Assembly: GCF_004010195.1 (NCBI RefSeq)
Contig: NC_057756.1
Coordinates: forward strand, 7,864,945 to 7,928,944
From: Chiloscyllium plagiosum
Lineage: Eukaryota
Length of the DNA: 64,000 nt
Direction of reading: 5' to 3'
The notes beneath the pieces are model-generated. The model was not told where the DNA came from and made no database searches. It was given only the letters and a program-made list of their open reading frames with translations. This document shows positions 4,354-63,706 of this stretch, piece after piece (within the stretch, counting starts at the first letter, position 1; every line of letters begins with the position of its first letter). Made by a program: the position numbers and the translations under genes.

Positions 4354-4393
4354 CTTGGAGAAGCGACAGCAGGAAATAAGATTTCTCGATCAT
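4354..4393 (-). CDS. Siglec-like receptor copy 1: intact leader (signal peptide) coding exon, MIEKSYFLLSLLQ(phase 1); whole exon 4354-4435
   Basis: Reverse strand reads tttcag|AGCTTGCG...ACA ATG ATC GAG AAA TCT TAT TTC CTG CTG TCG CTT CTC CAA G|GTAATG. Canonical AG/GT sites, 40 coding nt, phase 1 matches the phase-1 V exons of the paralogs (would give ...LLQAGLAQEW). Homologs at 17.7, 45.9 and 63.6 kb. Confidence 0.75.
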
Positions 4394-4809
4394 TGTTCGC
4401 TCCCAGGTATTTCGTCAGCTCCTCCCTCGCAAGCTCTGAAAGAAAAAGTAGCTGATGTACTACAAAAGTACCTCTTGTGCAACAGCTCTCAAGAAATCAG
4501 AACTACTTTTAGACATTGTCCTCATAGACCACGTTGATTCTCTGTGGGTTCAAGGCTTTAAGAAAAAAAGCATGTGCCAAAGTTCCTGTCTCTGTATTTC
4601 TCTGATTCCTTTGATCAAGAAAGATGCTCTGTTCCAAGATAGACTTGAGCTCACCGTCTCCACCAGAACCCAATCATTAATTGAAATCTTCCGAAGGCAT
4701 CATTGGAATCTGTCTTCACAAAGTTACAATGTCAGCAAAGGATAATGTTGATCACAGAAGCAAGTTCCAGTCATTGTGTAACTGACTCAGGACCTGTCCA
4801 ATTGCTCGC

Positions 4810-4922
4810 CAGGGGAGTAACCACTGTCACAACCTGTGTATCATGACTGGCCTCTTTATGTGCTGCTTCTGTTAATTTCATTAGAAGGAGTTGGTGTTTC
4901 ACTGTGAGTCAATTCAGGAAGT
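4810..4922 (-). promoter_or_regulatory. Copy 1 putative promoter and non-coding exon 1 (AP-1 TGAGTCA 4905-4911 next to ETS CAGGAAGT 4915-4922; donor CTG|GCGAGC at 4810)
   Basis: Homologous to 19385-19499 and 46343-46460, which have CAG|GTGAGC donors at the same position. ETS core is conserved in copy 2. Confidence 0.45.
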
Positions 4923-5804
4923 TGCGTTGATTTGAGAAAGCAGCATTACAAGCTGCCTCTGCGAGAAAAATGTTAACCCTTTGAGCTTACTTATTTATTC
5001 ATTTTGTGAGATGTGGGCATCCCTGGTTGGCCAGTATTTATTGCTGGTCCCTAGTTGCCCTTGAGAAGGTGGTTCTGAGCTGCCTTCTGAAGTCACTGTA
5101 GGGCTTCTGCTGTGGGTTGACCCACAATGCCCTTCGGAAGGGAATTCCAGCAATAGTGAAGGAATGCTAATATGTTTCCAAGTCAGGATCGTGAGTGACT
5201 TGGAGGGGAACCTGAAGGTGATGGTGTTCTCATATATCTGCTGCTCTTATCCTTCTAAATGTAAGTAGTCAAGGATTTGGAAGGAGTTGTCTAAGGATCT
5301 TTGGTGAATTTCTGCAGTGCATCTTGTAGATAATACACACTGCTGCTACTGAATGTTAGTGTTGGGAGCAGTGGATGTTTATGGATATGGTGCCAATCAA
5401 GTGGGCTGCTTTGTCCTGGATGGTGTTAAGCTTCTCAAATGTTGCTAGAGCTGCACTCATCCAGGCAAGTGGGGAGTATTCCATCACATTTCTGAATTGT
5501 GCCTTGTAGATGGTGGACAGGCTTTGAGGTATCAGGAGGTGACTTACTCGCCACAGTATTCCTGGTCTGTGACCGGCTTTTGTAGCCATTGAGTTTATAT
5601 GGTGAGTCCAGTTCAGTTTCTGATTAATGATAACTCCTAGCATGTTGATTGTGGAGAACTCAGTGATGGGAACACTGTTGAATGACAAGGGATAGTGGTT
5701 AAATTGTCTTTTACTGGTGATGGTCATAGCCTGGCTTTTACTTGCAGTTGAAACTTTATTGCTGGAACAGCACAGCAGGTCAGGCAGCATCCAGGGAACA
5801 GGAG

Positions 5805-5840
5805 ATTCGACGTTTCGGGCACAGGCCCTTCTTCAGGAAT
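5805..5840 (-). ncRNA. Minimal hammerhead ribozyme motif
   Basis: attc CTGAAGA a GGGC ctgt GCCC GAAACGTC gaat on the reverse strand. Confidence 0.75.
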
Positions 5841-6143: not shown

Positions 6144-9100
6144 CTTCTGTTCCCTAGATGCTGCCTGACCTGCTGTGCAGTTCCAGCAATAAAGTTTCAA
6201 CCAGTTACTACAGCTAACAGGTTCGTGATGCCAACATTGTTGGCNNNNNNNNNNNNNNNNNNNNNNNNNNNNNNNNNNNNNNNNNNNNNNNNNNNNNNNN
6301 NNNNNNNNNNNNNNNNNNNNNNNNNNNNNNNNNNNNNNNNNNNNNNNNNNNNNNNNNNNNNNNNNNNNNNNNNNNNNNNNNNNNNNNNNNNNNNNNNNNN
6401 NNNNNNNNNNNNNNNNNNNNNNNNNNNNNNNNNNNNNNNNNNNNNNNNNNNNNNNNNNNNNNNNNNNNNNNNNNNNNNNNNNNNNNNNNNNNNNNNNNNN
6501 NNNNNNNNNNNNNNNNNNNNNNNNNNNNNNNNNNNNNNNNNNNNNNNNNNNNNNNNNNNNNNNNNNNNNNNNNNNNNNNNNNNNNNNNNNNNNNNNNNNN
6601 NNNNNNNNNNNNNNNNNNNNNNNNNNNNNNNNNNNNNNNNNNNNNNNNNNNNNNNNNNNNNNNNNNNNNNNNNNNNNNNNNNNNNNNNNNNNNNNNNNNN
6701 NNNNNNNNNNNNNNNNNNNNNNNNNNNNNNNNNNNNNNNNNNNNNNNNNNNNNNNNNNNNNNNNNNNNNNNNNNNNNNNNNNNNNNNNNNNNNNNNNNNN
6801 NNNNNNNNNNNNNNNNNNNNNNNNNNNNNNNNNNNNNNNNNNNNNNNNNNNNNNNNNNNNNNNNNNNNNNNNNNNNNNNNNNNNNNNNNNNNNNNNNNNN
6901 NNNNNNNNNNNNNNNNNNNNNNNNNNNNNNNNNNNNNNNNNNNNNNNNNNNNNNNNNNNNNNNNNNNNNNNNNNNNNNNNNNNNNNNNNNNNNNNNNNNN
7001 NNNNNNNNNNNNNNNNNNNNNNNNNNNNNNNNNNNNNNNNNNNNNNNNNNNNNNNNNNNNNNTTTTATCTTAGTGCTTTGAGCACTCTCTGCTCATTCCT
7101 GAAGAAGGGCCTGTGCCCAAAACGTCGAATCTCCTGTTCCCTGGATGCTGCCTGACCTGCTGTGCTGTTCCAGCAATAAAGTTTCAACTTTGATCTCCAG
7201 CATCTGCAGACCTCACTTTCTCCTCGAAGATTTTACTTGCAGTTGTCAGCCCAAACCTGGATATTGTCCAGATCTTGTTGCATTTGAGCATGGACTGCTT
7301 CAGTCTCTGAGGAGTCATGAATGGTGCTGCATTGTGCAATCATTGGCAAACATCCCCACTTCTGACCTTATGACGGAGAGAAGGTCATCAATGAAGCAGC
7401 TGAAAATGGTTGGGCTGAGGACACTAATCTCAGGAAATCCTACAGAGATGTCCTGAAGCTGAGATGACTCACGTGACCTCCAACAACCACGACCATCTTC
7501 CTACATGTCAGCTATGACTCTAACCAGCAGAGTGTTTGCCCCCTTAAGCTCTTTAATTCCAGTTTTGCTACACATCCTTGATGCTACACTGGGTCGAATA
7601 CAGCCTTGATGTCAAGGGCTGTCGCTCTCACCTCACCACTGGAATTCAGTTCTTTTGTCCATGTTTGAACCAAGGCTGTAATGGGGTCAGGGGCTGAGTG
7701 GCCCTGGTGGAACATAAACATGGAGTCATTGAGCAGGTTATTGCTGAGCTGGTGCTGCTTGATAACACTATTGATGCCGCCTTCCATCACTTTACTGATG
7801 ATCAAGAGTGGACTGATGGGGCAGTAATATACCAGGTTGGACTTGTTCTGTTTTATTATATACAGTACATATGTGGGCAAATTTCCACTTTGTTATGTAG
7901 ATGCCAGTTATAACTGACTGGAACAGGCTGGCTCGGGGAGCAGCAGGTTCTGGAGCACAAGTCTTCAGTAATATTGCCAGAATGTTGTCAGGGCCCATAG
8001 CCTTTGGAGTATCCAATTCCTCTAACCATTTCTTGATATTGAATTGGCTGAAGACTGGTATCTGTAATGCTGGGGACCACTGGAGGAGGCTGAGATGGAT
8101 CATCCACTCAGCCCACTGCTGGCTGGAGATTGTAGCAAAAGCTTCAGCCTTGTCTTTGGCACTGATGTTCTGGGCTCTTCCATTATTGAGAATGGGGATG
8201 TTTGTGGAGTCTCCTCCTGCAGTGAGTTATTTAATCATCCACCACCATTCATGACTGGATGCAGCAGGACTGCAGAGCTCAGATCTAATCCATTGGTAGT
8301 GGAATCGCTTAGCTCTGTCCAACTCTTGCTGCTTATGTTGTTTGGCATGCAAGTAGTCCTATTTGGTGGTTTCATCAGGTGAACACCCCATTTTTAGATA
8401 TACCAGGTGCATATCACCTGGCAGTAAACACGCTTACTAATACTGTCATGGACAGACGCATCTGCAGCTGGCAGATTGTGAGGGAGGAGGAGGAGGAGGA
8501 GGAAATGCCAGGCCATAAGATTACGGATTGTGTTGAGTACAATTCTATGCTGCCACTGGCCCACAGTGCCTCATGGATATACAGTCTTGAGTTGCTAGAT
8601 CTGTTTGAAGTCTGTCCCATTGAGCACAGTGATAGCGTCACACAACATGATGAAGGATATTTTCAATGTGAAGGCAGGACTTCGTCAACACAAGAACAGT
8701 GCAGTAAACACTCTTACTAATACTGTCATGGACGGATGCATCTGCAGCTGGCAGATTGTGAGGGTGAGGTCAGGTATGCTTTCTCCTCTTGTTGGTTCGC
8801 TCGCCATCTGCCGCACACCCATTTCAGCAGCTCTGTCCTTTAAGACCCAACCACCTCGATCAGTAGTACTGCTGCCAAGCCACTCTTGGTGATGAACGTT
8901 GAAGTCCGCCTTCCCAGAGTATGCTTTGTGCCCTTGCCAGCCTCAGTGCTTCCTCTAAGTGTTGTTCCAAACGGAGGAGCATCGATTTATCAGCCGAGGG
9001 AAGAAGGTATGTGCTAATTAGCAGCAGGTTTCCTTGCCCTTGTTTAACCTGAAGCCATGAGACTTCATGGGGTCAGGTGTCAATGCTGAGGACTCCCAGA

Positions 9101-11069: not shown

Positions 11070-12470
11070 ACAATAAGATATAGGAGCAGAATTAGACTAT
11101 TGAGTCTGATCCACCATTTGATTACTGCTGCTATATTTCTCAATCCCATCCTCTTGCCTTCTCGCTGTAACCCTTGATCCCCTTACTCATCAAGAACCTA
11201 TCTATTTCTGTCTTAAATGCACTTGGTGGCTTGGCCACCGTTGCCTCTGTGGCAATGAGTTCCATGGATTAATCACCCTCTGGCTGCAGAAAGTCTCCCT
11301 CATCTCAATTCCGAAGATTCATCCTTTCATTCTGAGGTTATTACCTTGGGTCCTAATATCTTCTACAAATGGAAATATCTTCACCATGTCAACTCTATCC
11401 AGGCCTCTCAGTATTCTGTGAGTTTTAATCAGATTCTCCTTCGTCCTTCTAAACACTACTTATTACAGACCCAGAGTCCTCAACTATTTCTCATATGACA
11501 AGCCCTTCATCCCAGGATTATACTTCTTCTAAACCTCCTCTGGACCCTCTTCAAAGCCAGCGAATCCTTCCTTCAATCTGGGCCAAAAACTGCTCACAAT
11601 ATTCCAACTGCGCCTGACCAGAACTTTATATAGCCTTGGCAGTACATCTCTGCTTTTGTATTCTCAACCTCTTGAAAAGAATGCTAACAATTCATTTTCC
11701 ATCCTAACTGCATGTTAACCTTTAAAGAATCCTGAACTAGGACTCCTAAATCCTTTTATGCTTCAGATTTCTGAAGTCTTTTTCCTGTTTAGAAAATAGT
11801 CTACATCGTTATTCTTTCTATCAAAGTGTATAACATTACATTTTGTTAGTGTATTCCATCTGCCACCTCTTTACCGACTCCTTCGGCAGCCTCCCATTTC
11901 CACAACAGGACCTATTCCTCTGCCTATCCTTATGTCATCTGCAAACTGAGCAACAATGCCCTCAGTTCCTTCATCCAGATTGCTAATGTATGTCATGAAT
12001 AATTGTGGTCGCAACTCTGACTCCTGCAGAACTCCACTAGTCACAGGCCGCTATCCTGGCAAAGGTGCCTTTATCCCAACTCTCCACCTTCTGTCAGTCA
12101 CTCAATCCTTTGTCTATGCCAGTACCTTGCCCCTCACACCATGGGCTCTTATCTTATTGAACAGCCTCCTGTGCAGCACTTTGACAAAGGCCTTCTGGAA
12201 ATCCAAATAGATGCTGTTCACTGGCTCTCCTTTGTCTCACTTGTTCATGACCTCAAAGAATTCTAACAGATTTGTCAGACATGACCTCCCCTTGATGAAG
12301 CTGTGCTGACTCTGCCCCTACTTTATCATTGCACACCTAAGAACTTCACAATCTCGTCCTTAAGAATGGATCTACAATCATACCAACAACCGGGGTCAGG
12401 CTAACCAGCTTATAGTTTCCATCCTCTGCCTCCCTCTCTTCGTAAACAGGGGTGTTACTTTGGCCTTTCT
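11070..12470 (-). mobile_element. CR1 LINE 3' part
   Basis: Reverse strand has YLDFQKAFVKV and VTSGVLQ-type RT motifs and a CR1 3' tail. Confidence 0.8.
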
Positions 12471-13198: not shown

Positions 13199-13564
13199 CA
13201 GAAATGTGAAGCCAGGTTGCAAGGAAGTAACTGTAGCTATTCAGTAGCTAAAGTCATTCCAGGTGTTAAATTCTCCTCTGAAATAACAATTGTCTCACAT
13301 CTCCCTATCTGATGTTGTTGATAATCAGGGAACAGTCTCCATCTTTCAGGTCTACATAGAGCCGAGTCTGATAGTGGAACCATGCCAAACTCACCATTGT
13401 GATTCTTGTAGTGAAGGCCTGTTGACAATATTCCCCATTTCACATTGTTAACCAGATTCTGACTCCCAGTTAGAAGGGTAACTATAAAGATACGGAATCT
13501 GTGCACAGGAACCTTCCTGTGTTGTCACCTTGTGTGGAGTGCTGACTTTCCAATATTGTGTCAG
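13199..13564 (-). pseudogene. Siglec-like V-set exon, copy 2 (pseudogene)
   Basis: Translates in pieces as LTQYWKVSTPHKVTTQEGSCAQIP...WFHYQTRLYVDLKDGDCSLIINNIR*...YFRGEF...YFLATWLHIS. It has a 5-nt deletion after the acceptor, several frameshifts, TAG at 13305-13307 and a GC donor. Confidence 0.85.
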
Positions 13565-17707: not shown

Positions 17708-17767
17708 TAATAAGATGTCCTGCTCACTGGCCACTGCCAGATTTCATCAGCTTCTCCCCTTTAAGCT
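17708..17767 (-). pseudogene. Degenerate leader exon, copy 2
   Basis: tttcag|AGCTTAAAGGGGAGAAGCTGATGAAATC... is homologous to 4354-4435. The leader ATG is lost and the 3' half is replaced. Confidence 0.6.
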
Positions 17768-18799: not shown

Positions 18800-19148
18800 G
18801 TTGTGGTTCTGTTCGCCGAGCTGGGAATTTGTGTTGCAGATGTTTCGTCCCCTGTCTAGGTGACATCCTCAGTGCTTGGGAGCCTCCTGCGAAGCGCTTC
18901 TGTGATCTTTCCTCCAGCATTTATAGTGATTTGTACCTACCGTTTCCGGTTGTCAGTTCCAGCTGTCCGCTGCAGTGGTCGGTATATTGGGTCCAGGTTG
19001 ATGTGCTTATTGATTGAATCTGTGGATGAGTGCCATGCCTCTGAGGATGTCACCTAGACAGGGGACGAAACGCCTAGAACACAAATTCCCAGCTCGGCGA
19101 ACAGAACCACAACAACGAGCACCCGAGCTACAAATCTTCTCCCAAACC
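18800..19148. mobile_element. Short Penelope-like insertion of a second family, with inverted hammerhead-bearing arms
   Basis: TSD ttctccagtatt at 18788-18799 and 19149-19160; arms about 18798-18872 and 19041-19116 with CTGAGGA...GAAAC. Confidence 0.7.
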
Positions 19149-19384
19149 TTCTCCAGTATTTCCTGTTTTCAGTCCAAAGCTTCGTGTCTCTGCACTTCCT
19201 TCATTCTATATCGAGAAAGATGATCTGCCTTTAGTCCAGAGGTCAGTGTGAAGTAGAAACATTTCAAATACATCAGTGATTGGAATCAGTCTTTGTACAG
19301 TCACAACATCAACAAAGGGTGATGTTGGTCATGGCACTGATTATAGAGATGCGTTGGAGCAACGACTGTTGTTCGACTGCTCAC

Positions 19385-19499
19385 CTGGAGATTAACTGGC
19401 AACACGCTCTGCTTGGACTGAATGAATTCATCCTGTGCTGTTCACTCTGTATATTAATTCAAAAGGATTGACGTATTACTGTGTGTGGCTTCAGGAAGT
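19385..19499 (-). promoter_or_regulatory. Copy 2 putative promoter and non-coding exon 1
   Basis: CTCCAG|GTGAGC donor at 19385, TATA-like AATATA near 19450, ETS CAGGAAGT at 19492-19499. Homologous to the copy 1 and copy 3 regions. Confidence 0.45.
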
Positions 19500-20230: not shown

Positions 20231-20699
20231 TGTGAGCCATGGCAATGACTGTCTAGTCTACACAGAAATAACATCAAAGATCTTTCCAACAGTTTACAGT
20301 TTGCATGCAGTGACAGCTATGGCGCTGTTTTCTCACAATTTCCTCATTTCCTGATTTGAATCATCTTGACATTTAGTTATCAAACACACACAGGGGCTGC
20401 AGCACAGGAAGAGGCCATTCCACTCAGGCAGAGCATATGGGCAGTTATTCCCCATGCAAGTAATAGGACAGCTCAAGGGTAAGTAATGGAGTGACAGGAA
20501 CTCACATCCATGAGCAACATCATGTTTCATAGATACATAGAATCCCGACATAGTGGAAGCAGACTATTTGGCCCATTGGGTCCACATTGACCTTACAAAG
20601 ACCAGCACACCCAGAATCACCCTCTGACGCTATCCATGTAACCCTGCATTTCCCATGGTAAATCCACCCAGCCTGCACATCAATGGACACAATGAGCAT

Positions 20700-27260: not shown

Positions 27261-27264
27261 GAAC

Positions 27265-30353: not shown

Positions 30354-30769
30354 CAGAAAGGAAACAAGGAACCGGAAACAAAATCTAAACTGAATTCATA
30401 TTTGAAGATGATCTGTATGAAAACTGCGGCACGGTGGCACAGTGGTTAGCACTGCTGCCTCACAGCGCCAGAGACCCAGGTTCAATTCCCGCCTCAGGCG
30501 ACTGACTGTGTGGAGTTTGCACGTTCTCCCCGTGTCTGTGTGTGTTTCCTCCGGGTGCTCCGGTTTCCTCCCACAGTCACAAATATGTGCAGGTCAGGTG
30601 AATTGGCCATGCTAAATTACCCGTAATGTTAGGTAAGGGGTAAATGTAGGGGTATGGGTGGGTTACTCTTCGGCGGGTCGGTGTGGACTTGTTGGGCCGA
30701 AGGGCCTGTTTCCACACTGTAATATAATGTAAAAAAAATGACTAGGGTCCTGTATATGGAAATATATAA
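30354..30769 (+). pseudogene. Plus-strand receptor-tail exon remnant (EDDLYEN...GPVYGNI*) split by a SINE
   Basis: attcctatcgcag| acceptor, ERKQGTGNKI*TEFIFEDDLYEN, SINE at 30426-30737, then D*GPVYGNI*. Confidence 0.4.
30426..30737 (+). mobile_element. HE1/V-SINE-type SINE
   Basis: Full-length copy of the same family. Confidence 0.9.
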
Positions 30770-38000: not shown

Positions 38001-39401
38001 AAATCAAAATGCCAATTCTTTCACTGGAGTTTACTCACTGAATTACATAAAGTTATGTTTATCTGCTTGAAACAGATATTATGGTTGCTGATGCATCGTC
38101 AAGAAGGTAATCATGCTCGATTAGATTGATGATTTTAAAAAATCGATATCGGTATTACGGAGGATGAAGGTGAATGAATGTCATTGTGATTTATTTTATG
38201 TTTTTATGGTGGAGATATTTTCATGTTAATGTCACAATGAAATGCATTTGGAAATGGTGTTCCATTTTCCAAAGAGGGCGGCGTGTTGTTGGTATATATG
38301 TATAATTCAGGTCCAAGGCCAAATGAAATTTAAAACTGTTTGGATGTTTTGCATTAAAAAATGGTTTACCAAGGTTTGATGGGACACGAGACTTCTGGGA
38401 ATTGGTCAACGTTAATGTGACTGTGATTCACCTGATCATTACTGAAATGTCGAGAGACTTTTGAAAGGAGAAAAGTGAAGCTTTTAAGAGGGATTAGGGG
38501 TAGGTTTATGGTTTTAATTGCCAGACAAAACTTTGTTGAAACTAATGGCATGTATGTGCTGAAGGTTTTCAGCTGTACTCTTCTGGAATTGGTTCCTGCT
38601 TTTCCAGGACATCTGTATGTGTCATGGGGAGAAATGATCTGAAAATATGCAGTAGGCAAGTCTCTTTCTCCTGAAAAAAACAAGAAGACACCTTACACCA
38701 GGGTAAGCTGCACAAATCTCTCCCTCAGTGGGCACCTGAGAAAGTTCAAGTTATCGGTATTTCTGACAATCTCGTCAACACTGAAAGCTGGACTCTTTCT
38801 TCTACTCAAAGACCTAAGTCTAATTGACTATCCACCTGTCTGAAGTCTGATCTAAATATATTCCATCATTCTATGGTGGACAGTATTTCAATCTTGTCGA
38901 CAGGAAACTGACTTTATCCTTTGGGTAAGGATCTTTAGCTTGTGGGTGGTGTTTTTATTGCCCACCACAGCGCCACCCCCACTCCTCCACAGCCTTAACT
39001 TTTAAAAGAATATCACCTCTGCAGAGCTGGATGATATTTGCCATGTGAACATTTTCATTCGTGTTAATGCGACATTGTTTAATTCTGGAATGTATCACAT
39101 TTGGAAACAGTTTTCCTCCTCCTTTTAATAATACAGCCTGATTATAATTAACTTGCTATTTTTCTGTGTGTTACAGAAATTTAGGGAAAGTCATGAATAT
39201 TCTGGATAATGGCGTGAAAGAGTAGCAGTATGGTGACTGATTCAAAACGTCAATGTTTGTGAACTGGAGTGGTAATTGAGTCGTGATATGTGCCAACACT
39301 GGTTATTGCACGCATAAAATAAGCAAATTAAGCAGAACGTTGTGTAGTTTGCAATTCAGTGATGAGTGTGAATTACTGAAGAATTAAAATATATCACTCA
39401 C

Positions 39402-39740
39402 TCAAAACACGAAGCTGGGTTCCAGGAAAGAAGCTGTAATCAATCATGTTGCTGATTTCTACTCTGAAAAGATAAGGTCCTGCACCCGCCCATCTGGTGT
39501 TGTTGATAATCAAGAAACAGTCACCATCATTCAGGTCTCCAGGCAGCCGCGTCCAATGGCGGAACCATGGCAATTATTGACTGTGATCCTGGGAGTGAAA
39601 GGTTATCGATGATGTGACTAGTTTCTCATTATGAAAACAGATTCCAACTTGTGGTTGGTTTGCCAGATGTGAAGGGTAACTGTAATGACATGGAAGCTGC
39701 GCACAGAAAGCGTTGCCTTTCCATGCTTGTGTCAGTCCAG
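39402..39740 (-). pseudogene. Siglec-like V-set exon, copy 3 (pseudogene)
   Basis: ccccag|CT GGA CTG ACA... reads GLTQAWKGNAFCAQLPCHYSYPSHLANQPQVGICFHNEKLVTSSITFHSQDHSQ*LPWFRHWTRLPGDLNDGDCFLIINNTRWAGAGPYLFRVEISNMIDYSFFPGTQLRVL|GTGAGT. In-frame TAA at 39574-39576, 27-nt deletion versus copy 4, C-strand W to C. Confidence 0.9.
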
Positions 39741-44166: not shown

Positions 44167-45841
44167 CATACTGATCTTCCTGGGATCACTGTGTCTGTTG
44201 GGATCCTTTTAATCAAGAATCAGCCTGCAGTTAACCTCTAGGCCTGGCATCACAAACAAATAAAAGCTTGTTTTGTCTGTTCTTTTTCACCACAAGCTCT
44301 TCCGAAGTGCACAGGTCATTTTCAGCTCACAACTCCTAGATCACAGGTTGAAACAAAACTTGGCAACAGAGTAAAACCAAAAATAATAAGCAATCAGCAA
44401 GGTTCTAACACGTCCTTAACTATTTTATCCATCTGTCATGATACTTTAAGGGATCAGTGTACATGCTCTCCAAGATCCCTGTGCTCTTTGATGCTTCCCA
44501 GGGTCCTATTATTCATCATGTGTTCCTTTGCCTTATTTGTCCTGCCCACAAACATAACTTCACATCTTTCAGAATTGAACTCCATTAGGTACCAATCAGC
44601 ACATGTGACAAGCTCATCGATACCCTCCTCACTATTTTTAACCTCACCAACATTTCTGTCATCTGCAAACTTACTGATCAGCCCTCTGACATTCAAATGT
44701 GAATCATTTATATAAACCACAACCAGCAAAAATCCCAAAACTGACCACTATGGGATTGTACTGGTCACAGACGTCCACTGGAGAAAACACCCATTAACCA
44801 CCGCCCTCTGCTTCCTGCCACTTGGTCAATTGTGAATCCAGCTTGCCATCATTGCTTGGATCAAATGGGCTTTGATATTTGCTGTCACTCTCCCACACAT
44901 GACCTTATCAAAAGCCTTGCAGAAGTCCAAGAAGACGACTTCAAAACCATTGCCTTCCAATCCACACCTGGTCACCTCTTTGGAAAAATCAACCAAGTTG
45001 TTCAGGCATGACCTGCCCCTAACACCTTTCCTGCTGTAAGGAATCACTCTGAATCTTCATTGATGAAGGGATCCCTTTGGATTCTCATTGTGTAAGGGAT
45101 TATTTTTGATCCAAATCTAATGTTGTTGTATTGTTAATTCTGATACAGCATAGGAGACCAACTGTTCCCCAAGCTCAGTACTGATCCTACTACAGCAGAC
45201 ACTATGAAACAGTCAAACAAAGTGTGTCTAACCTGAGCTCTGTATGTGCTGACAGTAAAGATAAATATGGAATCAAATGTTTGACACGTTTACTGACTGC
45301 TTTGCCTTTCTTTATCTGTTGGTTATCTCACCCCCTTATTGAGGTTTGTAGCACTGTGAAATTTGACAGGAAGTGTGATGTTGAACAGCATGTCTATTCT
45401 AGGAGCTGCTGTGTTGTCTTCATGGGCAATTCTAATGAAAATCAGCATAAGACAGAAATTACAGACAATTGTAATTGGACTAGCAGTTTCAGAGTAAATA
45501 TCAATCCCCAGTTTTTATCATGGCTCACTCCCATGACTAGATCAGTGTTCACTGATTTCCGTTGGTTACCAAAGCTTCAACTTTATGATAATCATCACTT
45601 ATTTCCCATACCATCATCTCCCTTCTCCATTTCCTAATCCTTTATTCTCCTCTTTATCTGAAATATATACTGCGAGATCTCTCTGCTCCGCCACTACTGT
45701 TGTCAGAACAGGAGTCAGTGCATATCGGTGAGCACATGGGTGATGGGTGAACTAGACTTGATGTGAATTCCCATCACATTGATACAAACAATCTTTAACA
45801 AAGACTATTACCCATAAATCTTTCTGTGGTAATAATATTAT

Positions 45842-45920
45842 CTTGAAGTGACAGCAGAAAATAAGATTTCCCGATTATTTTCCACTCCTAGATATTTCAT
45901 CAGCTTCTCCACCTTAAGGT
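45842..45920 (-). pseudogene. Leader exon copy 3, disabled
   Basis: ATA ATC GGG AAA TCT TAT TTT CTG CTG TCA CTT CAA G|ATAAT: start ATG changed to ATA and donor GT changed to AT. Confidence 0.7.
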
Positions 45921-46342
45921 CTGAAAGAGAAAGGAGTTAATAAGACCTCACATCTTGTACAACAGTTCTCAAGAGATCAGATAATCTTTTAAATAATATC
46001 CTGACAGGCTGCTTTGTTTCTCTGCAGAATGATAGGTGCTCTACAGAGAGTTAGAAGGCTTCAAGAAAGTAAAACAATAAAAGATGTGAATCTCTGCAGA
46101 GTTTTCACCTCTTCGGGATGTCTCAAAGCTCCTGGCTCTACATATTACTCATCCCTTGATCAAGCAAGATGATCTGTTTGACTGACTTGAGGTTTACAGC
46201 CAGATAGCAAGAATACACAGAAACCATTAAAAGGCATCAAATATTTGAATCTGTCCTTACAACATCAACAACAGATGATCTTGATCTTGAAAGTAAGTTC
46301 CTGTTGTTCTGTTACTATTCCTGGATCTGTCCAACTGCTCAC

Positions 46343-46460
46343 CTGGGGAGTAATTGTCAATATGCACTGCTTTGGGGTCAATATTCTCTTTCTGTGCTAC
46401 ACCCCCATCTGTATTTCTTTAGAATTGTTGATGTGTCAATGTGGGTGAGATCAGTAAGTG
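46343..46460 (-). promoter_or_regulatory. Copy 3 non-coding exon 1/promoter, ETS core mutated (CAGTAAGT)
   Basis: CCCCAG|GTGAGC donor at 46343; positional homology to copies 1 and 2. Confidence 0.4.
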
Positions 46461-50668: not shown

Positions 50669-51550
50669 CTAAGAAGCAACATGTTGAAGTTTAATTGCAC
50701 TCCATTTGCTAAAGACATCCTGCTGGTAAATGGCTGTTTGTGTTGATGTTAAGAATAAGAACTTTATGTAATGAGCTGTCAAGGACAAAAAGAAGGAAGC
50801 AACGCTGAACATATATCAGGCTCTGTTAGCTCACAAAGACAGTATTGTGTCTAGTTCTGGTCACCACACTTTAGGAAGGACATGAGGGGCCTTGGGAGGG
50901 AATTTGAGAGACTTGAGAGGGAAAGAGGGAATGGTATTTAAGAGGGTGTGGTGGAAATTGATTGGAATGGTTCCTGGAAGCAGGGATTTTAGTAACAGAG
51001 TTCACTTGGAGTAGCTGGGACTGCTCCCCTCAAAGTGGAGGAGATTGGTGGCAGTCTGACCGAGATGGAGCAGATAGGGACAGGTCTAGATCAGGAAGGC
51101 AAAGGAAAGCTGTTCCCATTTGCTGATGATACAAAGACCAGGGGGGACAATTGGAAGATTCTTTGTTGGATAGACAGAGTGGAGATTGTGAGAAAGGACT
51201 GTTTTACACAGCGAGTGACAATGATCTGAAACTCGCTGCCTACAAGGTGAGGTGGTTGGGGAGATGCTCACTGATTTCAAATAGAAATTTGTGAGCATCA
51301 GACATTTGTGGCAAATAAACTCTAAGAACAATGAAGAGAGAATGGCGAGATGGGACTGATTGACCTTACAGAGAGAGCTGGCATGACACTGGATGGGCTG
51401 AATGGCCTTCTTCTATGCTGTAATAACTCTGTAATATGAAGATGATCCTAACCAGTGGTATTATCTGGATTCTGTGTAATTTAAACCAACAGTGCTTTGG
51501 TTGCACTGAAAAAGCTTGAAACAGCCTTTTAGTTTCGTTTAACTGTTTGC

Positions 51551-51638
51551 CTCTCACAGACACAAACACCAGCAACAATGAATATCCCAGCTCGTATTTC
51601 CAGGATCAGGATTACATGCAGACTCTCTCCTCTGCAAT
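51551..51638 (-). pseudogene. Second identical copy of the candidate transmembrane exon
   Basis: Lies within the 859-bp tandem duplication. Confidence 0.55.
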
Positions 51639-52409
51639 CTAGAAAACACCAAGAAAGAATTAATCTCTTACTGTCCACTTGCAATCTCTCACTGTGGAAG
51701 AACACTCAGCTTCATTTCACTACAACATTTCCTATAATATTGGTGGTGATGCAGTAAGAATGCCTCTGGGTTAGCAATTCAGAATGCAAAGCTGATATTC
51801 TGGGAGCACGGACTTAAATTCCACTGCGTTAGATAGTGAAATTTAAATTGAAGTAAAAATCTGGAATTAAAACTTTAGTCTAATCCCATTTGGTTCAACT
51901 AATGGCCTTCAGGGAAGCAAATCTGCTGAAATTTTACCCTATCCAGCCTATATGTGACTCTAGTCCTACAGCCGATGAAGGGCTTTTGCCCGAAACGTCA
52001 ATTTCGAAGCTCCTTGGATGCTGCCTGAACTGCTGTGCTCTTCCAGCACCACTAATCCAGAATCTGGTTTCCAGCATCTGCAGTCATTGTTTTTACCTCA
52101 GGTCCTACAGCACTCTGATTGAATGCTCACTGATTTCAAATAGAAATTTGTGAGCATCAGACATTTGTGGCAAATAAACTCTAAGAACAATGAAGAGAGA
52201 ATGGCGAGATGGGACTGATTGACCTTACAGAGAGAGCTGGCATGACACTGGATGGGCTGAATGGCCTTCTTCTATGCTGTAATAACTCTGTAATATGAAG
52301 ATGATCCTAACCAGTGGTATTATCTGGATTCTGTGTAATTTAAACCAACAGTGCTTTGGTTGCACTGAAAAAGCTTGAAACAGCCTTTTAGTTTCGTTTA
52401 ACTGTTTGC

Positions 52410-52497
52410 CTCTCACAGACACAAACACCAGCAACAATGAATATCCCAGCTCGTATTTCCAGGATCAGGATTACATGCAGACTCTCTCCTCTGCAAT
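52410..52497 (-). pseudogene. Candidate transmembrane exon of copy 4 (DCRGESLHVILILEIRAGIFIVAGVCVCE)
   Basis: Strong acceptor ttctttcttggtgttttctag|, phase-1 start, hydrophobic stretch containing E and R, ends AG|GCAAAC (GC donor). Confidence 0.6.
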
Positions 52498-55100: not shown

Positions 55101-55583
55101 TACCCAACATGGCATTGCACATGGAAACCATGTATCACTGGTTTGAATGAATTTTTTGAAGAAGTAACAAAGAGAATCAATGAGCGCAGAGCAGTGGACG
55201 TGATCGGTACAGACCTCAGTAAAGCATTCAACAAGGTTCCTTCATAGACTGGTTAGCAATCTTAGATCACATGAAATACAGGGAGAACTAGCCATTTGGA
55301 TGCAGAACTGGCTCAAGGGTAGAAAACAGAGGGTGGTGGAGGAGGCTTGCTTCTTGGACTGGAGGCCTGTGACCAGTGGTGTGCCAAAACAATTGGTGCT
55401 GGGTCCACTGCTTTTCATCATTTATATAAATGATTTGGATGTGAACATAGGAGGTATGTTTAGTAAGTTTACGGGTGACACCAAAATTGCAGGTGCAGTG
55501 GACATAGAAAAAGGTTACTTGAGAGTACAATGGGATCCTAATCAAATGGGCCAATGGGCTGAGGAGTGACAGATGAAGTTTAA

Positions 55584-55770: not shown

Positions 55771-58379
55771 TCCTAATCAAATGGGCCAATGGGCTGAGGA
55801 GTGACAGATGAAGTTTAATTTAGATAAATGTGAGATGTTGCATTTTGGAAAGGCAAATCAGGGCAGGACATATACACTTAATGATAAGGTTCTGGGGAGT
55901 GTTGGTGAACAAAATGTCCTTGGAGTGCAGGTTCATAGTTTCTGAAATGTGGAGTAGCAGGTATATAGGATAGTGTAGAAGGTGTTCAGTACTCATGCCT
56001 TTCTTGGTCAGTGCATTGAATAAAGGGGTTGGGAGGTCATGTTGAAGCCACTTTTGGAATAATGCATGCAGTTCTGGTCTCCATCCTATTGGAAGGATGT
56101 TGTGAAAATTGGAAGGATTCATAAAAGATATATAAGGAAGTTGCCAAGTTTGGAGTGTTTGAGCTATGGGGAGAAGCTGTAATGGTTGGGGCTGTTTTCC
56201 CTCAAGTGTTGGAGGCTGAGGGCGATCTTATAGAGGTTTATAAAGTCATGAGGAGCATGGATAGAGTAAATAAATATGGCTTTCTCCCCAAGTCAGGGAG
56301 TCCAATGGCAGCACGGTGGCTCAGTGGTTAGCACTGCTATCTCACAGCACCCGGGTCTCAGGTTCGATTCCAGCCTCAGGTGACTGTCTGTGCGGAGTTT
56401 GCACATTCTCCCCGTGTCTGCGTGGGTTTCCTCCCACAGTCCAAAGATGTGCAAGCCAGGTGAATTGGCCATGCTAAATTGCCCCATAGTGCTAGGTGCA
56501 TCAGTCAGAGGGAAATGGGTCTAGGCAGGTTACTCTTCGGAGGGTGTTCAAGTGTTTGTTCTCACCACAACATCATAATTCCACATGGCAAACTGTTCCA
56601 GTCCTGAAGAAGGGTTAATACTCAAAGCGTAGACTTATTCCACCTCCTGGTGTTGCCTGGCTTGCTGTTTTCTAATAACGTTCTGTTTGTCTACTTTGTG
56701 CTTGTAACTCTGCAGTTTTATTAACTATACACCATGCGTTCACAGACTTACAGTTTAACCCTCTCTCCCTTAATTGGACTTCACCTATTAACTGAATAAG
56801 TTTGATTTCTATGCTAGTCCAAGTTCATCCCCTGTGGTTGGAGGGTTCCCAGTCGGAAGATAAGACGCTCCTCCTCCGACCGTCGATTTCTATGCTGCCT
56901 GACTTTTTTCATGTTTTGTGCGCACAAATGTCTCTAATACTCTCTCTTGGTCCCTATATCCCAGCCCAATGAATATAAATCCTCCCCAACAGCACAAGCA
57001 AAATACCCCACAAGGAAATCACCCCCCGCTCAGTTCAGATGAAGTCTATCAGGTATCTACAGGTATCATCTTCCTCAGAGCCAGTCCCAGTGTCACAGCA
57101 CCCAGAAGCCCTACATCCTGCACTATCTTTCCAGGCACATTTCCAATTTCTCGTTCACTTGCAAGTGACATTAGGAGCAGTCCAGAAGTTCCTGCTGTGT
57201 TTCTGTTTGCTCATTTTCTTCCAAGCTCACCAAATTCTGACTGTGGGCCCACATCTCCCTTCCTACCTGTGTCGATTGTACATTTGGGATACAACCTCTG
57301 TTATCATTCACCCAGAAGCATTATCCAGTGATATCCCTGGCCCTAGCTGCAGGAAGACAACACACTGTCTTAGAGTCACTTTGACAGCTGCAGAAACATC
57401 TGTCTGACACCAAACTAAAGAATCCCCACTCAGTACAGCCCTTCCACTCTTGCCTCATCCCTCCTGAACAGCTGGGCATTGTGTGTTGCTGCACACCTCC
57501 AGGGATCCATCACCAACATCCAGGTGGAAAACCAGCTGGTGAGTGAGACCTCTGAGAACTCCTGCACTACCTTCCTGGTTCTCTTGGACTGCCAGGTGTT
57601 CTCACTTTCCCTACCTGCCTGCTTTCCCCCAACCTGTGTTATGACCGCCTCCCTGCATGTGCAATCCACATCGTTCTCTGCCTCACAGACACAGCTCAAT
57701 GATTGTAGCTGCTGCTTGAGCTCTGAAACCCAGAGATCGAGTTTGTGCAGCCGCTGTAACTTCCTATACTTGGGCTTGCCCATGACTCCCTGTCCACCAG
57801 AGGATGGGGTTCACGTGGCTGAGCTGACATTTTAGTGTATCTTTAGTAAAATTTACTTTCATTAACCTGTTTCTTGTGCTGTTAACTAATAACCGATAAT
57901 GAGCAGAAAGTAGAAATCCTTGGCCCATGTTTACATATTATCTTCCTCTTGTGCTTATAAATTTTACCTTCCCAGTGCTAGTTTACAAAGTCACATTTTT
58001 CAGAATTGCACCTAGCACTATGGGGCAATTTAGCAAGGCCAATTCACCTGGCTTGCACATCTTTGGACTGTGGGAGGAAACCCACGCAGACACGGGGAGA
58101 ATGTGCAAACTCCACACAGACAGTCACCTGAGGCTGGAATCGAACCTAGGACCCGGGTGCTGTGAGATAGCACTGAGCCACCGTGCTGCCATTGGACTCC
58201 CTGACTTGGGGAGAAAGCCATATTTATTTACTCTATCCATGCCCCTCATGATATTGGAACACAGACTTTAACAGCAACTTATTAACAAGCAATATCTCTC
58301 CTGTGATATCACTCTTCGACTACTTTCTGGACATGACCCAGCTACCAGGATGGGTACTCCCTTATAGGCTTGACCTCCA

Positions 58380-59800
58380 GTCTCTTTAAGTTTCTCATCA
58401 TTTACAGTTAGAATTGGAGCTTGTGACTTAGGGGAAGATGCAGTCTTACTGCAAAATGATATATTTGACATAAAGAAGCTAATATGGCACTGTTCACATA
58501 AAATTAATTGGCTTCACAGGACGCACTGTTCAGTGGAAAAAGAAAATCTGGTCTTGTTACTGCTCTGAAACATTTCAAAGTCTATGTCCATCATAACTAC
58601 AAAGGAACACTCATATGTACTGACTGTAATCTAATGGCCTTTGGAGACAAATTTAAAAATCAAAATGCCAACTGTTTCACTGGAGTTTCCTGATTAAACT
58701 AAATAAAGAATTGTTTGTATGCCTGAAGCAGATATTATTATTGCTGATGCACTGTCAACAAAGTAATCATGCTGGGTTAGATTGACGATTAAGAAAATAA
58801 TAAGAAACTGTATCAGTATTATGGAGAATGAAGGTGAATGAATGTAAGTTTGACTTATTTTATGTTTTTATGGCGTAGATATTTTCATGTTTATATCACA
58901 ATGAAATGCATTTGGAAATGGTGTTTCATTTTTCAAGGAGGGAGGCATGTTGGTGATACATTTTTTATAATTCAGGGCCAACACCAAATGAAATATCAAA
59001 CTGGTTGGGTGTTCTGGATTGAAAATGGTTTACCAATGCTTTGATGGAACACGTGACTTCTGGAAATTGTTCAACATTAATTTGCGCTGTGACTCACCTG
59101 ATCATTATTGAAATGTCAAGTAACTTTGGAAAGGAAAAAAGTGAAGCTTTCAAGAGGATTACTTGAGATTTAATTCTCGGATAAAACTTCATTGGAACAA
59201 ATGGGATGTACGTGCTGAAGGATTTTTTTAGCAACACTCTTCTGGAGTTGGGTCCTGTTTTTCCAGCACATCTGTAAGTGTCATTGGGAGAAATTATCTC
59301 AAAATGTGTAGTTGGAAAGTCTCTTTCTCCTGAAACAATAAGAGGATACCTCACACCAGCACAAGCTGCACAGATCTCTCCCTCGTTGAAATATTTCTGG
59401 GAACCTGAGAAGTTGAGATGTCAGTACTTCTAACAATCTCATCAACTCTGAAAGCATGGATTTTCCTTCTATCAAAGACCTAAATCCAACTGACCATCCA
59501 TCTGACTGAAATCTGATCTGAAGATATTCCATCACTCTATAGTGGACAGTGTTTCAATCTGATCGACAGGAAACTCGTTCTTTCCTTTGACTACTGATCT
59601 TAGGCTGTGGGTGTTTTTGTTTCCCCCCTTGGCTTTGAAAATAATATCATCTCTGCAGAGCTGGATGGTGTTTGTCATGTGAATATTTTCATTCATGTTA
59701 ATGGGATATTGTTTTAATTCTGGAAGATACCTTGGTTGTGAACAGTTTTTCCACTTTATTTAAAATGCAGCTTGATTATTGTGAACAAGTTATTGTTCTG
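58380..59800 (+). mobile_element. Gypsy RNase H remnant, polypurine tract and probable LTR (paralog about 37560-39180)
   Basis: ALKHFKVYV...TDCNLMAFGDKFKNQNA resembles the Gypsy RNase H ALxHF..Y..TDHNPL..KxxN motif; aaggagggagg followed by tgt at about 58935-58950. Confidence 0.55.
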
Positions 59801-60029
59801 TGCATTATAGAAACCTGGTGAAAGTCATGAATGTTCTAGATAATGGCATGAAAGGGTAGCAATATGGTGATTTAATCAGAACCATTTACACCAATGGTAC
59901 AGTGTGGTAATTAAGTCATGAAATGTACAAACACTGGTTATCACATCCATAAAACAGACTAACCAAACACAAGGGGGTTTTGCAGTTTTCAACTGGTGTG
60001 CTTTTGAAAAATTGGAATATATCATTTCC

Positions 60030-60392
60030 TTGAAACATGAAGCTGGATTACAGGAAAGTTGCTGAATTTATACATGTTGAATTCCACTCTGAACCAATAA
60101 GGTCCTGCATCTTCCCATCTGATGTTGCTTATAATCAGGGAATAGTCATCATCTTTGAGGTTTCCAGACAGCCAGATCCAATGGTGGTACCGTGGCAACT
60201 TGCGACTGTGATCCTGGGAGTGAAAGGCTATCCACGATGTGACCGGTTTCTCATTATGAAACCAGATTCCAACTTGCGGTTGGTTTGCCAGATGTGAAGG
60301 GTAACTGTAATGACATGGAATCTGTGCACAGGAACTTTCCTGTACTATCACCTCATGTGGAGTATTGACTTTCCACTCTTGTGCCAGTCCAG
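60030..60392 (-). CDS. Siglec-like V-set exon, copy 4 (open frame; splice donor mutated; probably pseudogene)
   Basis: ccccag|CT GGA CTG GCA... reads GLAQEWKVNTPHEVIVQESSCAQIPCHYSYPSHLANQPQVGIWFHNEKPVTSWIAFHSQDHSRKLPRYHHWIWLSGNLKDDDYSLIISNIRWEDAGPYWFRVEFNMYKFSNFPVIQLHVS. 363 nt, phase 1/1. Donor is GGAAAT where copy 3 has GTGAGT; read-through stop at 60022-60024. Confidence 0.9.
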
Positions 60393-63300
60393 CTGGGGAG
60401 AGTAATATCAGTAGTCAACTAGACTCACTGGTTGAACAGTCTCAGAGCAGGTTTCAATGTAAATCAGAGGCTGGCTGCTGAAAACCATGGGAGCTGAGAG
60501 ACTCTGCCAGGGAGCCCTTGGAATCCATAAATCACAATTTGAGAATATGTGGGACTAAAGTCACAGAGATCTGGATTGTAGACAAAGGCCCTATGGCATT
60601 TTATGTCCCTGCCCGTTAACAATTCTCATCCCATTTTCTGGCACTCGGCCCATCGCCTTGTAGGCTTTGGTGTGGTAAATGCACATTAAAATACTGATTA
60701 AATGTTATGAGGATTTCTGCTTTGACTTCTCCACCTCCTGATGTTGCCTGGCTTGCTGTGTTATTCTAGCCTCCTGCCTGTCTACCAACCTCACAGGCAG
60801 TGAGTTCCTGACTTTTCACCACTCCCTGGGTGAAAATGTTTTTCCTTGCATCTCATTGAAACATTTTTCCCCTTACTTTAAATTGCTGGTCATTGATCCT
60901 TCCACCAAGGGGAAAGGTTTCTCCCCGTCTACCCTCTCTGCACCCGCACAGTTTTATTCACCTCAATCACATCTCCTTCAATCTCCTCTCTAGGGGTAAC
61001 AACACCAGCCTGTCTAATCTCCCTTCATAACTAAACCTCTCCATCCTATGCAACAACCTGGTAGATATCTTCTGCACCTTCTCCAGTGCCACCACATCCC
61101 TCCCATAATGTGGATACCAGAACTGCACACAATAGTGTAGCTCTGGCATAACCAATGTAATATACAGTTCCAGCATCACCTCCCTGCTCTTGAACTCCAT
61201 GCCTGGGCTAATAAAGGCAAGTATTCCATATGCTGACCATAAGTAAAATTAAATTTGTCGATGACTCCGAATAGTTACTCCAATGACTCTGAACCGAACT
61301 TTTGACTAATTCCAGACTTTGTGAATGATTAACTCCAAACATTGGATTTGTATTAAAGAATTGATCGAATACATAGTAACATTAGCAGAGAAAAATCAAA
61401 CAACATGGTACTCTAATTAATATCTATTATGTAAACCAGAAATATTTGTATTTAGCCCCATTCACACAGACAAGCAAAGTAACATCGTTCACAGATGAAT
61501 GAAACACAATAATAAAACTAGCCAGATAACTTAAATGGTTTTCAGGATGCATTGTATCACAAGTATAAATGTGGACTCCTTGTTGCTTCTCTGGAAATCA
61601 GGCTCACCTTTTGAATTTACTTAGGTAAAAGTAGTAATACTTCTAACTCAGCTTTATACTCTTTGTTCTTCTGGAAGCTGGCATGGGACATTCATCAGAG
61701 AGCATTTAAATCTTCATGCTATGTCATCAGCAACAAACTAATCTCAGCAGAAAGTACAGTTTAAAAAAAAACTTCAACCCTGGTTTCACCTTGATAAGCT
61801 GATTGTCTTTGCCCAAGGTCTCAATTACCATTCACTATCTGTCACCTGCTTGAATGTAGGGTCTCTTCCAGACTAGCCAGAACCAATTCCTAGGTACTAA
61901 CCTCATGTGTCCGCCAACTTCTATTTAAACACATTGATATTCCTGGGATCGCTGTGTCTGTTGGAATCCTTTTAATCAAGAATCAGCATGCAACTAACCT
62001 TAAGGCCTGGCAACACAAACAAATAAAAAATTGTTTGGTCTCTTCTTTTCCACTCAGAATAAGCTATTGCAAAGTGAACAAGTTATTTTTGTCTCACAAC
62101 TCTTAGTTCACAGGTCCAAACCAAAACTGACACAATAAACAGAAAAATAATGAAAAAATCAACAAGCATCCTAACACCTTCTTAACTATTTTATCCACCT
62201 GTCCTGACATCTTAAGGGATAAGTGTACATGCACACCAAAATCCATCTGATCTTGGTACTTCCCAGGGTTCTACTATTTATTATGTATTCCTTTGCCTTG
62301 TTTGTCCTGCCCATGTACATAACTTTACATCTTTCAGGACTGAACTCCATTACTCACTGATCTGCCGATCTGGCGAGCTCATCTAAATCCTCCTTGATAT
62401 TTTTAACCTTGCCAACATTCCTGTCATTTGCAAATTTACTGACCAATCCTCTGACTTTCAAGTGTGAATCATTTATATAAACCACAACCACAATAATCCC
62501 AATACTTACCCCGGTGGGATCCTACTGGTCATAGATGACCAGAGGAGAAAACACCTGTCAACCATCACCCTCTTTTGCCTGCCACTTAGCCAATTATGAC
62601 TCCAACATGCCATCATTCCTTGGATCAAATGGGCTTTGATATTTGCTGTTACTCTCCCACACATGACCTTATCAAAAGCCTTGCAGAAGTCCAAGAAGAT
62701 GTCTTCCAACCCACACCTGGTCACCTTTTTGGAAAAATCAACCAAGTTGTTCAGACATGACCTGCCCCTAACACCTTTCCTGCTGTAAGGAATCACTCTG
62801 AATCTTCATTGATGAAGGGATCCCTTTGGATTCTCATTGTGTAAGGGATTATTTTTGATCCAAATCTAATGTTGTTGTATTGTTAATTCTGATACAGCAT
62901 AGGAGACCAACTGTTCCCCAAGCTCAGTACTGATCCTACTACAGCAGACACTATGAAACAGTCAAACAAAGTGTGTCTAACCTGAGCTCTGTATGTGCTG
63001 ACAGTAAAGATAAATATAGAATCAAATGTTTGACACGTTTACTGACTGCTTTGCCTTTCTTTATCTGTTGGTTATCTCACCCCCTTATTGAGGTTTGTAG
63101 CACTGTGAAATTTGACAGGAAGTGTGATGTTGAACAGCATGTCTATTCTAGGAGCTGCTGTGTTGTCTTAATGGGCAATTCTAATGAAAATCAGCATAAG
63201 ACAGAAATTACAAACAATTGTAATTGGACTAGCAGTTTCAGAGTAAATATCAATCCCCAGTTTTTATCATGGCTCACTCCCATGACTAGATCATTCTTCA

Positions 63301-63624
63301 CTGATCTGCATTGGTTATCAAAGCTTCAACTTTATGACAATCTCCAGTTATTTCTCACCCCCTCATCTCCCTTCTCCATTCCCTAATCCTGTATCCTCCT
63401 CTAGATCTGCAATCTACACTGCAAACTCTCCGTGCTGCTCCATTACTATTGTCAGACTGGGAGCCAGTGTGTATCAGTGAGCTCAGTGAGGATGTGTGAA
63501 CCAGACTTGGTATGAGTTTGTACACTGGCTCACTGCTGGATTGGTTCCCAATCAGAGCTCAGTGCAAACAATCTTTAACAAAGACTATTAACCATAAATC
63601 TTTCTGAGGTAACGATAATATTAA

Positions 63625-63706
63625 CTTGGAGAAATGACAGCAGGAAATAAGATTTCCCAATCATTTTCTGCTCCTAGAAATTTAATCAGTTTCTCCCTCT
63701 CAAGGT
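63625..63706 (-). pseudogene. Leader exon copy 4 (MIGKSYFLLSFLQ), donor altered
   Basis: ATG at 63662-63664 is intact. CAA G|TTAAT replaces CAA G|GTAAT, so the only GT is shifted by one base (phase 0). Confidence 0.75.

Follow-up and report, generated by a model that had tools for sequence, protein, structure and literature searches.

Does a 64,000-nucleotide stretch of the genome of the shark Chiloscyllium plagiosum (contig NC_057756.1, positions 7,864,945 to 7,928,944; in the following called the window and numbered from its first base) hold a cluster of Siglec-like receptor genes, or only the remains of one? The initial annotation had proposed a hidden tandem cluster of four such genes on the minus strand, shaped by birth and death of gene copies. 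Our analysis retains the tandem duplication with pseudogenisation, but the four genes are replaced by three putative pseudogene fragments, which have a V exon and lack a detectable C2 exon, and a single further leader exon. Very probably, the window consists of pseudogene debris, left where a cluster of Siglec-like immune receptors of a shark has decayed. No working protein can be demonstrated in it, and taken alone it is ordinary gene-family debris. Of moderate interest is the family to which it points, a large Siglec-like family of sharks and rays with inhibitory-type and activating-type members.

Leader and V exons of Siglec type

All seven proposed exons, four leaders and three V exons (named V2, V3 and V4 after their copies), are present on the minus strand at the coordinates first given (Table 1). 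Using a profile of 30 shark V domains, the V exons of copies 4, 3 and 2 were matched at E 2e-51, 5e-42 and 2e-14, which is far beyond chance, and the next match in the window follows at E 1.0. A leader profile matched leaders 1, 4 and 3 at E 3e-8, 8e-6 and 1e-4, and leader 2 is detectable at the DNA level only (69-71% over 166-189 nt). Neither the V profile nor tblastn found a V exon in positions 1-4353, i.e. in the 4.3 kb left of the copy 1 leader. Copy 1 is an intact leader and may continue intact past the left edge of the window. The intronic blocks that the copies were said to share are long between copies 3 and 4, which have about 7-10 kb in common (36.4-46.2 kb versus 56.7-64.0 kb, 76-85% identity in BLAST). 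For copy 1 they amount to about 250 nt at 70%, and for copy 2 to blocks of 39-78 nt only.

As anticipated, copies 2-4 are disabled by different lesions: copy 4 has lost its splice donors, copy 3 shows a lost ATG, a lost donor and a stop codon, and copy 2 is truncated and carries frameshifts. The cysteine pattern of Siglecs comprises an inter-domain Cys together with a B-strand and an E-strand Cys, the F-strand Cys being absent; its columns are common to 22/22 mammalian V domains that we checked. In the window, this pattern is complete in V3 only, which has Cys at the C-strand Trp, and V4 and V2 have Tyr at the E-strand Cys and at the B-strand Cys, respectively. The F-strand Arg is retained in 3/3 V exons, whereas the full list of motifs on which the Siglec assignment had been based is found in no single copy. 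With Tyr at an E-strand position that is Cys in 104/104 domains of the family described below, V4 is predicted to be structurally dead. Besides, 6/37 conserved columns are altered in V4, compared with 0-5 in family members.

The open frame of V4 encodes a V-set domain (Pfam V-set, E 5.5e-10), and its score against Pfam Ig_CD22 (24.4 bits) is below the cut-off of 27. Among its 30 PDB matches, the top 18 are Siglecs (E 6e-9 to 7e-5). The remaining 12 reach no better than E 0.002 and belong to sodium-channel beta-2 and TIM-3. The F-strand Arg of V4 aligns with the Arg of Siglec-5 and sialoadhesin. An AlphaFold model of V4 (mean predicted local distance difference test score 82.5) was compared with 48,161 chains. 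The closest fold was that of MAG (Z 18.0, root-mean-square deviation 1.4, 116 residues aligned), followed by sialoadhesin (17.7), CD33 and Siglec-5 (16.2) and Siglec-8 (15.5), and the six best chains all belong to these five proteins. Lower scores were obtained for PILRA (14.9), Siglec-15 (14.8) and CD22 (11.8). By sequence and predicted fold, the V exons of the window are of Siglec type, and the best matches do not belong to another V-set family.

Search for C2, transmembrane and tail exons

Siglecs carry one to sixteen C2 domains behind the V domain. Within the 64-kb window, neither tblastn, run first with 27 relatives and later with 114, nor four C2 profiles (best E 0.39-1.5) revealed a C2 exon. 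In the same window, even the badly decayed V2 is detected at the E-value given above, whereas the C2 profiles give nothing credible. Because no C2 exon was found, copies 2-4 are classed as putative pseudogene fragments rather than whole genes. The two common types of transmembrane (TM) exon of the family were also searched for in the window, and none was found. Nor does the window contain a single spliceable gene with a TM exon and a tyrosine-motif tail; of these parts, there is a shortened Arg-TM exon that belongs to no gene, and a tail that is both inverted and broken. One C2-like tblastn match (8754-9078, E 0.004) was discounted, since the profiles give no support; we take it from its motifs to be a fragment of a long interspersed nuclear element (LINE).

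The parent shark-and-ray family

A protein search with V4 (38 candidates) returned 27 matches, all of them shark or ray proteins with 53-67% identity, which agrees with the proposed cartilaginous-fish family. Searching with a catshark member, we obtained 134 matches, and the 120 listed comprise 94 named elasmobranch proteins, 24 mammalian Siglec-type proteins and two unnamed entries, which were left out. In total, 21 species of sharks and rays are represented among the named relatives, which often lie in large numbers on one contig. Judged from these matches, the family is elasmobranch-wide and not specific to one shark lineage. Of the lineage-specific expansion put forward initially, there remains the placement of copies 3 and 4 in a carpet-shark subclade. 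The family was not hidden either, as RefSeq had already annotated it automatically and names the shark relatives Siglec, CD33-like or MAG-like.

Architecture was compared in 114 elasmobranch proteins, which combine V and C2 in 106 cases and have V without C2 in three and C2 without V in five. Among the tails of 129 proteins, 52 match a pattern resembling the immunoreceptor tyrosine-based inhibitory or switch motif (ITIM/ITSM), a count that includes chance matches. Seven have an Arg-TM helix (six with a short tail, one a patchwork model), 38 have no helix and 32 fall into other types. The F-strand Arg is present in 96/104 V domains, the three Cys of the pattern in 99, 102 and 104 of 104 (the last being the E-strand Cys), and Phe at the F position in 102/104. 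Family members splice the leader to the V exon, as had been expected: the proteins read leader-Gln-Ala/Val-Gly-Leu, which fits the phase-1 sites in the window.

The five-domain relative P0026 is colinear with the whole MAG ectodomain (residues 20-509 versus 5-480, E 1e-60). A family profile of V and C2 scored 128 bits against CD33, 116 against Siglec-10, 115 against MAG and 114 against Siglec-5, all within 14 bits of each other, whereas CD22 (72) and Siglec-15 (54) are set apart. The profile does not separate CD33-related Siglecs from MAG. CD22, which had been named alongside Siglecs and MAG, is not a close relative, with 72 bits against 108-128.

A second elasmobranch lineage of Siglec-like V domains (P0160-P0166, P0154-P0159 and the N-terminal part of P0003) has Tyr at the place of the essential Arg in 11/11 cases. 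A search with the N-terminal part of P0003 returned this second lineage and cat FCRL5 only. Models of the two lineages lie on contigs of matching length. Because the Arg-less V lineage has leader, C2, TM and tail exons in common with the first, we read this pattern as probable exon shuffling between the two elasmobranch lineages.

Some gene models of the family deserve mention. In the great white shark models P0147, P0110 and P0111, the V exon is skipped and the leader is spliced to the first C2, reminiscent of the V-skipped isoform that exists for CD33. Models with V but without C2 occur in manta (P0025, P0142, P0143), basking shark (P0051) and whale shark (P0112). Parts of the public models P0018, P0045, P0091, P0040, P0053 and P0093 derive from repeats or are out of frame, and these pieces match short interspersed nuclear element (SINE) or intron sequence of the window. 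Since several models hold such pieces, RefSeq models of the cluster need care.

History of copies 3 and 4

Copies 3 and 4 differ by 9-26% per 100 nt over most of their alignment (74-91% identity, about 83% overall), with the exception of one intron tract (Table 1). There, 299/300 positions are identical, a value reached in 0/5000 shuffles (shuffle maximum 285). This tract of about 640 bp probably reflects recent gene conversion. Within it lies a block of intron sequence that the four copies have all retained (including 3563-3805 and 15867-15944), which is a possible regulatory element. Two plus-strand frames of 150 codons (45185-45637 and 62934-63386) were rejected as genes: the one scanned has no Pfam match, and their likeness is due to the near-identical tract.

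The V3 and V4 exons diverge like their introns (Jukes-Cantor distance 0.19 versus 0.13-0.24), and their ratio of nonsynonymous to synonymous substitution rates (dN/dS) of 0.82 is indistinguishable from 1. Going by the intron rates, 3.3-5.5 frameshifts should separate them; as none does (P 0.004-0.036), V3 and V4 appear to have been under earlier constraint. After their split, copies 3 and 4 were probably functional for a while and exchanged the intron tract later. Their relationship was placed in a quick, unrooted maximum-likelihood tree of 140 V domains (116 columns, 67/137 forks open), which was built without MAG, Siglec-1, CD22 and Siglec-15 sequences. V3 and V4 are sisters (Shimodaira-Hasegawa-like approximate likelihood ratio test, SH-aLRT, 82), and the clade to which they belong (SH-aLRT 94) has five further rows, every one from a carpet shark. 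V2 forms a long branch elsewhere, and its place is unsure.

Transmembrane and tail exons, exon A and segment X

The duplicated Arg-TM exon, the inverted tail split by a SINE, the tract of about 640 bp, the exon A in front of the leaders and the failure to find a C2 exon are features that the initial annotation did not contain. The Arg-TM exon is carried by a tandem duplication at 51264-52981, with a difference at 1/859 bases between its two units, and this TM piece matches a bamboo shark model at 95%. Together with the place of V3 and V4 in the tree, this match points to a carpet shark as host.

Two tail exons lie on the plus strand. Scaffold mis-orientation was rejected as their source, as each is joined to minus-strand copies without an intervening gap; because of this contiguity, the tail is regarded as a real inversion. 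In the inverted terminal exon, the SINE at 30428-30733, whose family has about ten copies in the window, separates one tyrosine motif from the other.

Exon A is homologous to the first cytoplasmic exon of the family, which the window holds on the plus strand, down to the position of the donor. For copy 4, the place of exon A falls outside the window. In the great white shark model P0016, exon A comes first and is joined to the leader exon by a junction identical to that of copy 1, and the basking shark model P0039 continues from the real tail of one gene via exon A to the leader and V of the following one. Since these two models show it, the arrangement of exon A and leader is old and probably transcribed.

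Segment X, an exon-like stretch behind V4 and V3, was considered as a conserved coding exon and rejected, having no Pfam match and an intron-like divergence. Between the copies it diverges at the intron rate, 3/4 indels are out of frame, and the frame differs among the three sequences after about 40 codons. Segment X is probably intronic.

Table 1. Exons and related features of the Siglec-like copies in the window.
Feature	Position	Strand	Remarks
Copy 4 leader exon	63625..63706	-	Part of the 5' untranslated region and 13-codon start of the signal peptide, ATG at 63664; donor GT changed to TT
Copy 4 V exon (Siglec-type V-set)	60030..60392	-	Frame open; F-strand Arg kept; E-strand Cys changed to Tyr; donor GT changed to GG
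Copy 3 leader exon	45842..45920 (45842 approximate)	-	ATG changed to ATA; small deletion; donor lost
Copy 3 V exon	39402..39740	-	Deletion of 27 nt; TAA in frame at 39576; C-strand Trp changed to Cys; Arg and three Cys retained, splice sites intact on both sides
Copy 2 leader exon	17708..17767 (17708 approximate)	-	Truncated; homologous place without ATG
Copy 2 V exon	13199..13564	-	Decayed furthest, with several stops and frameshifts; B-strand Cys changed to Tyr; GC donor
Copy 1 leader exon	4354..4435	-	ATG (4393) and GT donor intact
Exon A of copy 3	46320..46408	-	Homologue of the first cytoplasmic exon, 400 nt upstream of leader; E 1e-5; donor lost
Exon A of copy 2	19362..19446	-	Homologue of the cytoplasmic exon, upstream of leader 2; E 2e-9
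Exon A of copy 1	4787..4868	-	AG and GT present; E 3e-4
Arg-bearing (activating-type) TM exon, first tandem copy, orphan	52388..52497	-	Profile E 2.6e-9; six codons shorter than in relatives; Gly changed to Glu
Arg-bearing TM exon, second copy	51529..51638	-	Within the 859-bp tandem duplication
First cytoplasmic exon, inverted	20394..20478	+	E 1.5e-9; splice sites intact; two in-frame stops
Terminal cytoplasmic exon, inverted, two tyrosine motifs	30354..30769	+	Broken by frameshift, SINE (30428 to about 30733) and TAG
Segment X after V4, exon-like	59098..59329	-	AG and GT kept; matches C-terminus of C2-less whale shark model P0112; frame not conserved
Segment X after V3	38432..38670	-	AG and GT kept
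Intron tract, copy 4	62650..63294		About 640 bp, about 99% identical to 44886-45545; holds intron block common to all four copies
Partner intron tract, copy 3	44886..45545		Near-identical to 62650-63294

Probable cluster decay and alternative explanations

In the explanation that we prefer, the working members of the family elsewhere would be type I membrane lectins with a leader, one or two V-set domains bearing the sialic-acid Arg and 1-13 C2 domains. At the 3' end, these would have a tail with tyrosine motifs (ITIM/ITSM-like) or else an Arg-bearing TM helix followed by a short tail. A Siglec-type function is suggested for them because of the definition of the family (PMC8161119) and the precedent of Siglec-5/14 (PMC4042635). 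Working relatives would read sialylated glycans on self or pathogens via the V-domain Arg, and signalling would be inhibitory through the tyrosine motifs or activating through an adaptor of the charged TM helix, as in CD33-related Siglecs. Such a cluster would grow by tandem duplication of a unit of exon A, leader and V, and would decay via deletion, inversion and retroelement insertion. As for the window, we infer that copies 2-4 lost their C2 exons, that one activating-type TM exon was stranded and one tail inverted, and that the point lesions came afterwards.

Several points weigh against this explanation. If all three V copies lack C2, either several deletions or one old deletion are needed, and 3/114 relatives are modelled as V without C2. 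The assembly has two N gaps (6245-7062 and 27379-27657), each flanked by repeat copies, which could conceal the C2 exon of copies 2 and 3, but not that of copy 4. Copy 1 may be intact past the left edge, and the pseudogene call is a reading of the sequence. A dN/dS near 1 is normal also for fast-evolving immune receptors, and the number of stop codons is uninformative on past constraint (one seen versus 3.2 expected, P 0.16). The 99% tract could be a local mis-assembly and not conversion, and the 859-bp duplicate could be either very recent or an assembly artefact. Finally, the tree is a quick one of few columns with many open forks, and the ITIM/ITSM counts are pattern matches.

PILRA and PILRB are paired forms with a single Siglec-like V domain and no C2. 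It is improbable that copies 3 and 4 derive from a functional single-V Siglec of this layout, with V spliced either to the Arg-TM exon, giving a membrane-bound activating receptor, or to segment X, giving a secreted decoy. Both copies would then have died recently, or copy 4 would survive by cryptic splice sites. The splice phases are compatible throughout (V donor and TM/X acceptors in phase 1) and no frameshift separates the V frames of V3 and V4, but V4 lacks the invariant Cys, both donors of copy 4 are lost, and the TM exon is shortened and has an extra Glu. A manta gene is modelled as V-TM-tail, and its three listed isoforms (229-263 amino acids) are too short for C2. The whale shark model P0112 likewise reads V-X without C2 and falls into the same V clade; however, its sister in the tree is the full seven-domain receptor P0011, and segment X has the divergence, indels and shifting frame described above. 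PILRA resembles V4 in fold but ranks under six Siglec chains, and PILR is neither among the 30 sequence matches of V4 nor among the 60 shown of 157 in the family-profile search. The C2-less state of the window copies is best explained by loss.

A similarly small chance is given to the family being a set of expanded MAG co-orthologues with neural or adhesion instead of immune roles, in which case the window would be the debris thereof. MAG shares the V-C2-C2-C2-C2 ectodomain, with which five-domain relatives are colinear over its whole length (E 1e-60), and it is the top fold match for V4, tied with sialoadhesin. On the other hand, the V and C2 profile ranks CD33 and Siglec-10 above MAG, and high copy number, pseudogenes and Arg-TM forms suit immune receptors. 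MAG is a conserved neural protein, highly so across vertebrates according to PMC8161119, whereas V4 has 22% identity to it, and the shark family is multi-copy, with variable domain number, many broken copies and divergent paralogues per species. Least credible are leader-V units serving as alternative 5' cassettes for one shared C2-TM-tail part downstream (copy 1, past the left edge), comparable to protocadherin or UGT1: this would account for three C2-less units in one orientation and for the earlier frame constraint, models with two V in a row are common, and basking shark P0039 reads through from the tail of one gene to exon A, leader and V of the next, but no protein pair with different V on an identical constant region exists among the named elasmobranch models compared, the stranded TM and tail exons show that the copies owned separate 3' ends, and every V of the window is now broken.

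Beyond the decayed-cluster explanation, it is conceivable, though rather doubtful, that the family belongs to the CD33-related cluster itself and forms its branch in cartilaginous fishes. The ancestor of jawed vertebrates would then already have had a paired inhibitory and activating system of sialic-acid receptors with fast turnover, which arose from a five-domain gene like MAG, and the re-used cytoplasmic exon before the leader would let neighbouring genes splice together and shuffle domains.

Comparison with known Siglec systems

The closest known sequences are elasmobranch Siglec-like proteins in RefSeq (XP_043539275.1, XP_038668956.1, XP_048476522.1, XP_041037216.1), which have the same leader, a V domain 53-67% identical to V4, the Arg-TM exon and the tyrosine-motif tail exons. 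In contrast to the window copies, which are fragments, most of them have C2 and intact frames; their names are RefSeq labels and not orthology calls. Because several features of a Siglec gene fail, the window copies are filed as putative Siglec-family pseudogene fragments.

Like the mammalian CD33-related cluster (CD33, Siglec-5/-14, -10, -11/-16), the shark family forms a tandem cluster, shows the V-set Arg and the Cys pattern, and has inhibitory-type and charged-TM forms. Rapid turnover and pseudogenes are seen together with probable conversion and exon shuffling, and inhibitory motifs (52) and a charged TM helix (7) occur among the 129 proteins by sequence pattern. In mammals, conversion is described between neighbouring CD33-related Siglec genes (PMC4042635), as is probable for the shark cluster. 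The resemblance is established as one of behaviour only, with an identity of about 24-38%. The 'CD33-related-style' expansion of the initial annotation holds in this sense of behaviour, and the five-domain members are colinear with MAG. The Siglec-5/14 pair differs as well, being called 'nearly identical' (PMC4042635), whereas Arg-TM and ITIM-pattern partners within one shark species reach a V identity of at most 63-86%. Sialoadhesin (Siglec-1) is similar to CD33 in its V score (75 versus 70 bits), and some shark relatives have long C2 runs. CD22 and Siglec-15 are clearly lower in both the V and C2 profile and the fold search.

We found no published description of an elasmobranch Siglec cluster, a weak negative, as most subscription journals lay outside the search. 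A study of teleosts reports fish genomes without CD33-related Siglecs, and 'shark' or 'cartilaginous' is never mentioned in its text (PMC7226832). Siglecs are among the immunoglobulin-domain families enriched at the jawed-vertebrate ancestor, according to PMC8455134. If the shark family were orthologous to the mammalian cluster, sensing of sialic acid as 'self' by paired receptors would be as old as the jawed vertebrates; if not, the same evolutionary pattern would have been repeated independently.

Repeats and other content of the window

No unrelated host gene was recognised in the window, and an Rfam scan of it gave 0 matches. The rest of the window consists largely of interspersed repeats. 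Among the long frames scanned, 3/15 match reverse-transcriptase or endonuclease profiles and 12/15 match nothing. Retroelement fragments are located at 27349-28368, 42362-43186, 53605-55241, 11159-12462, 13979-15319 and 32916-35054, some of them LINE-like with reverse-transcriptase or endonuclease matches; others are presumably of the Penelope type, going by their motifs. Besides, there are inverted-repeat pairs at 18798-19115 and 56246-58251.

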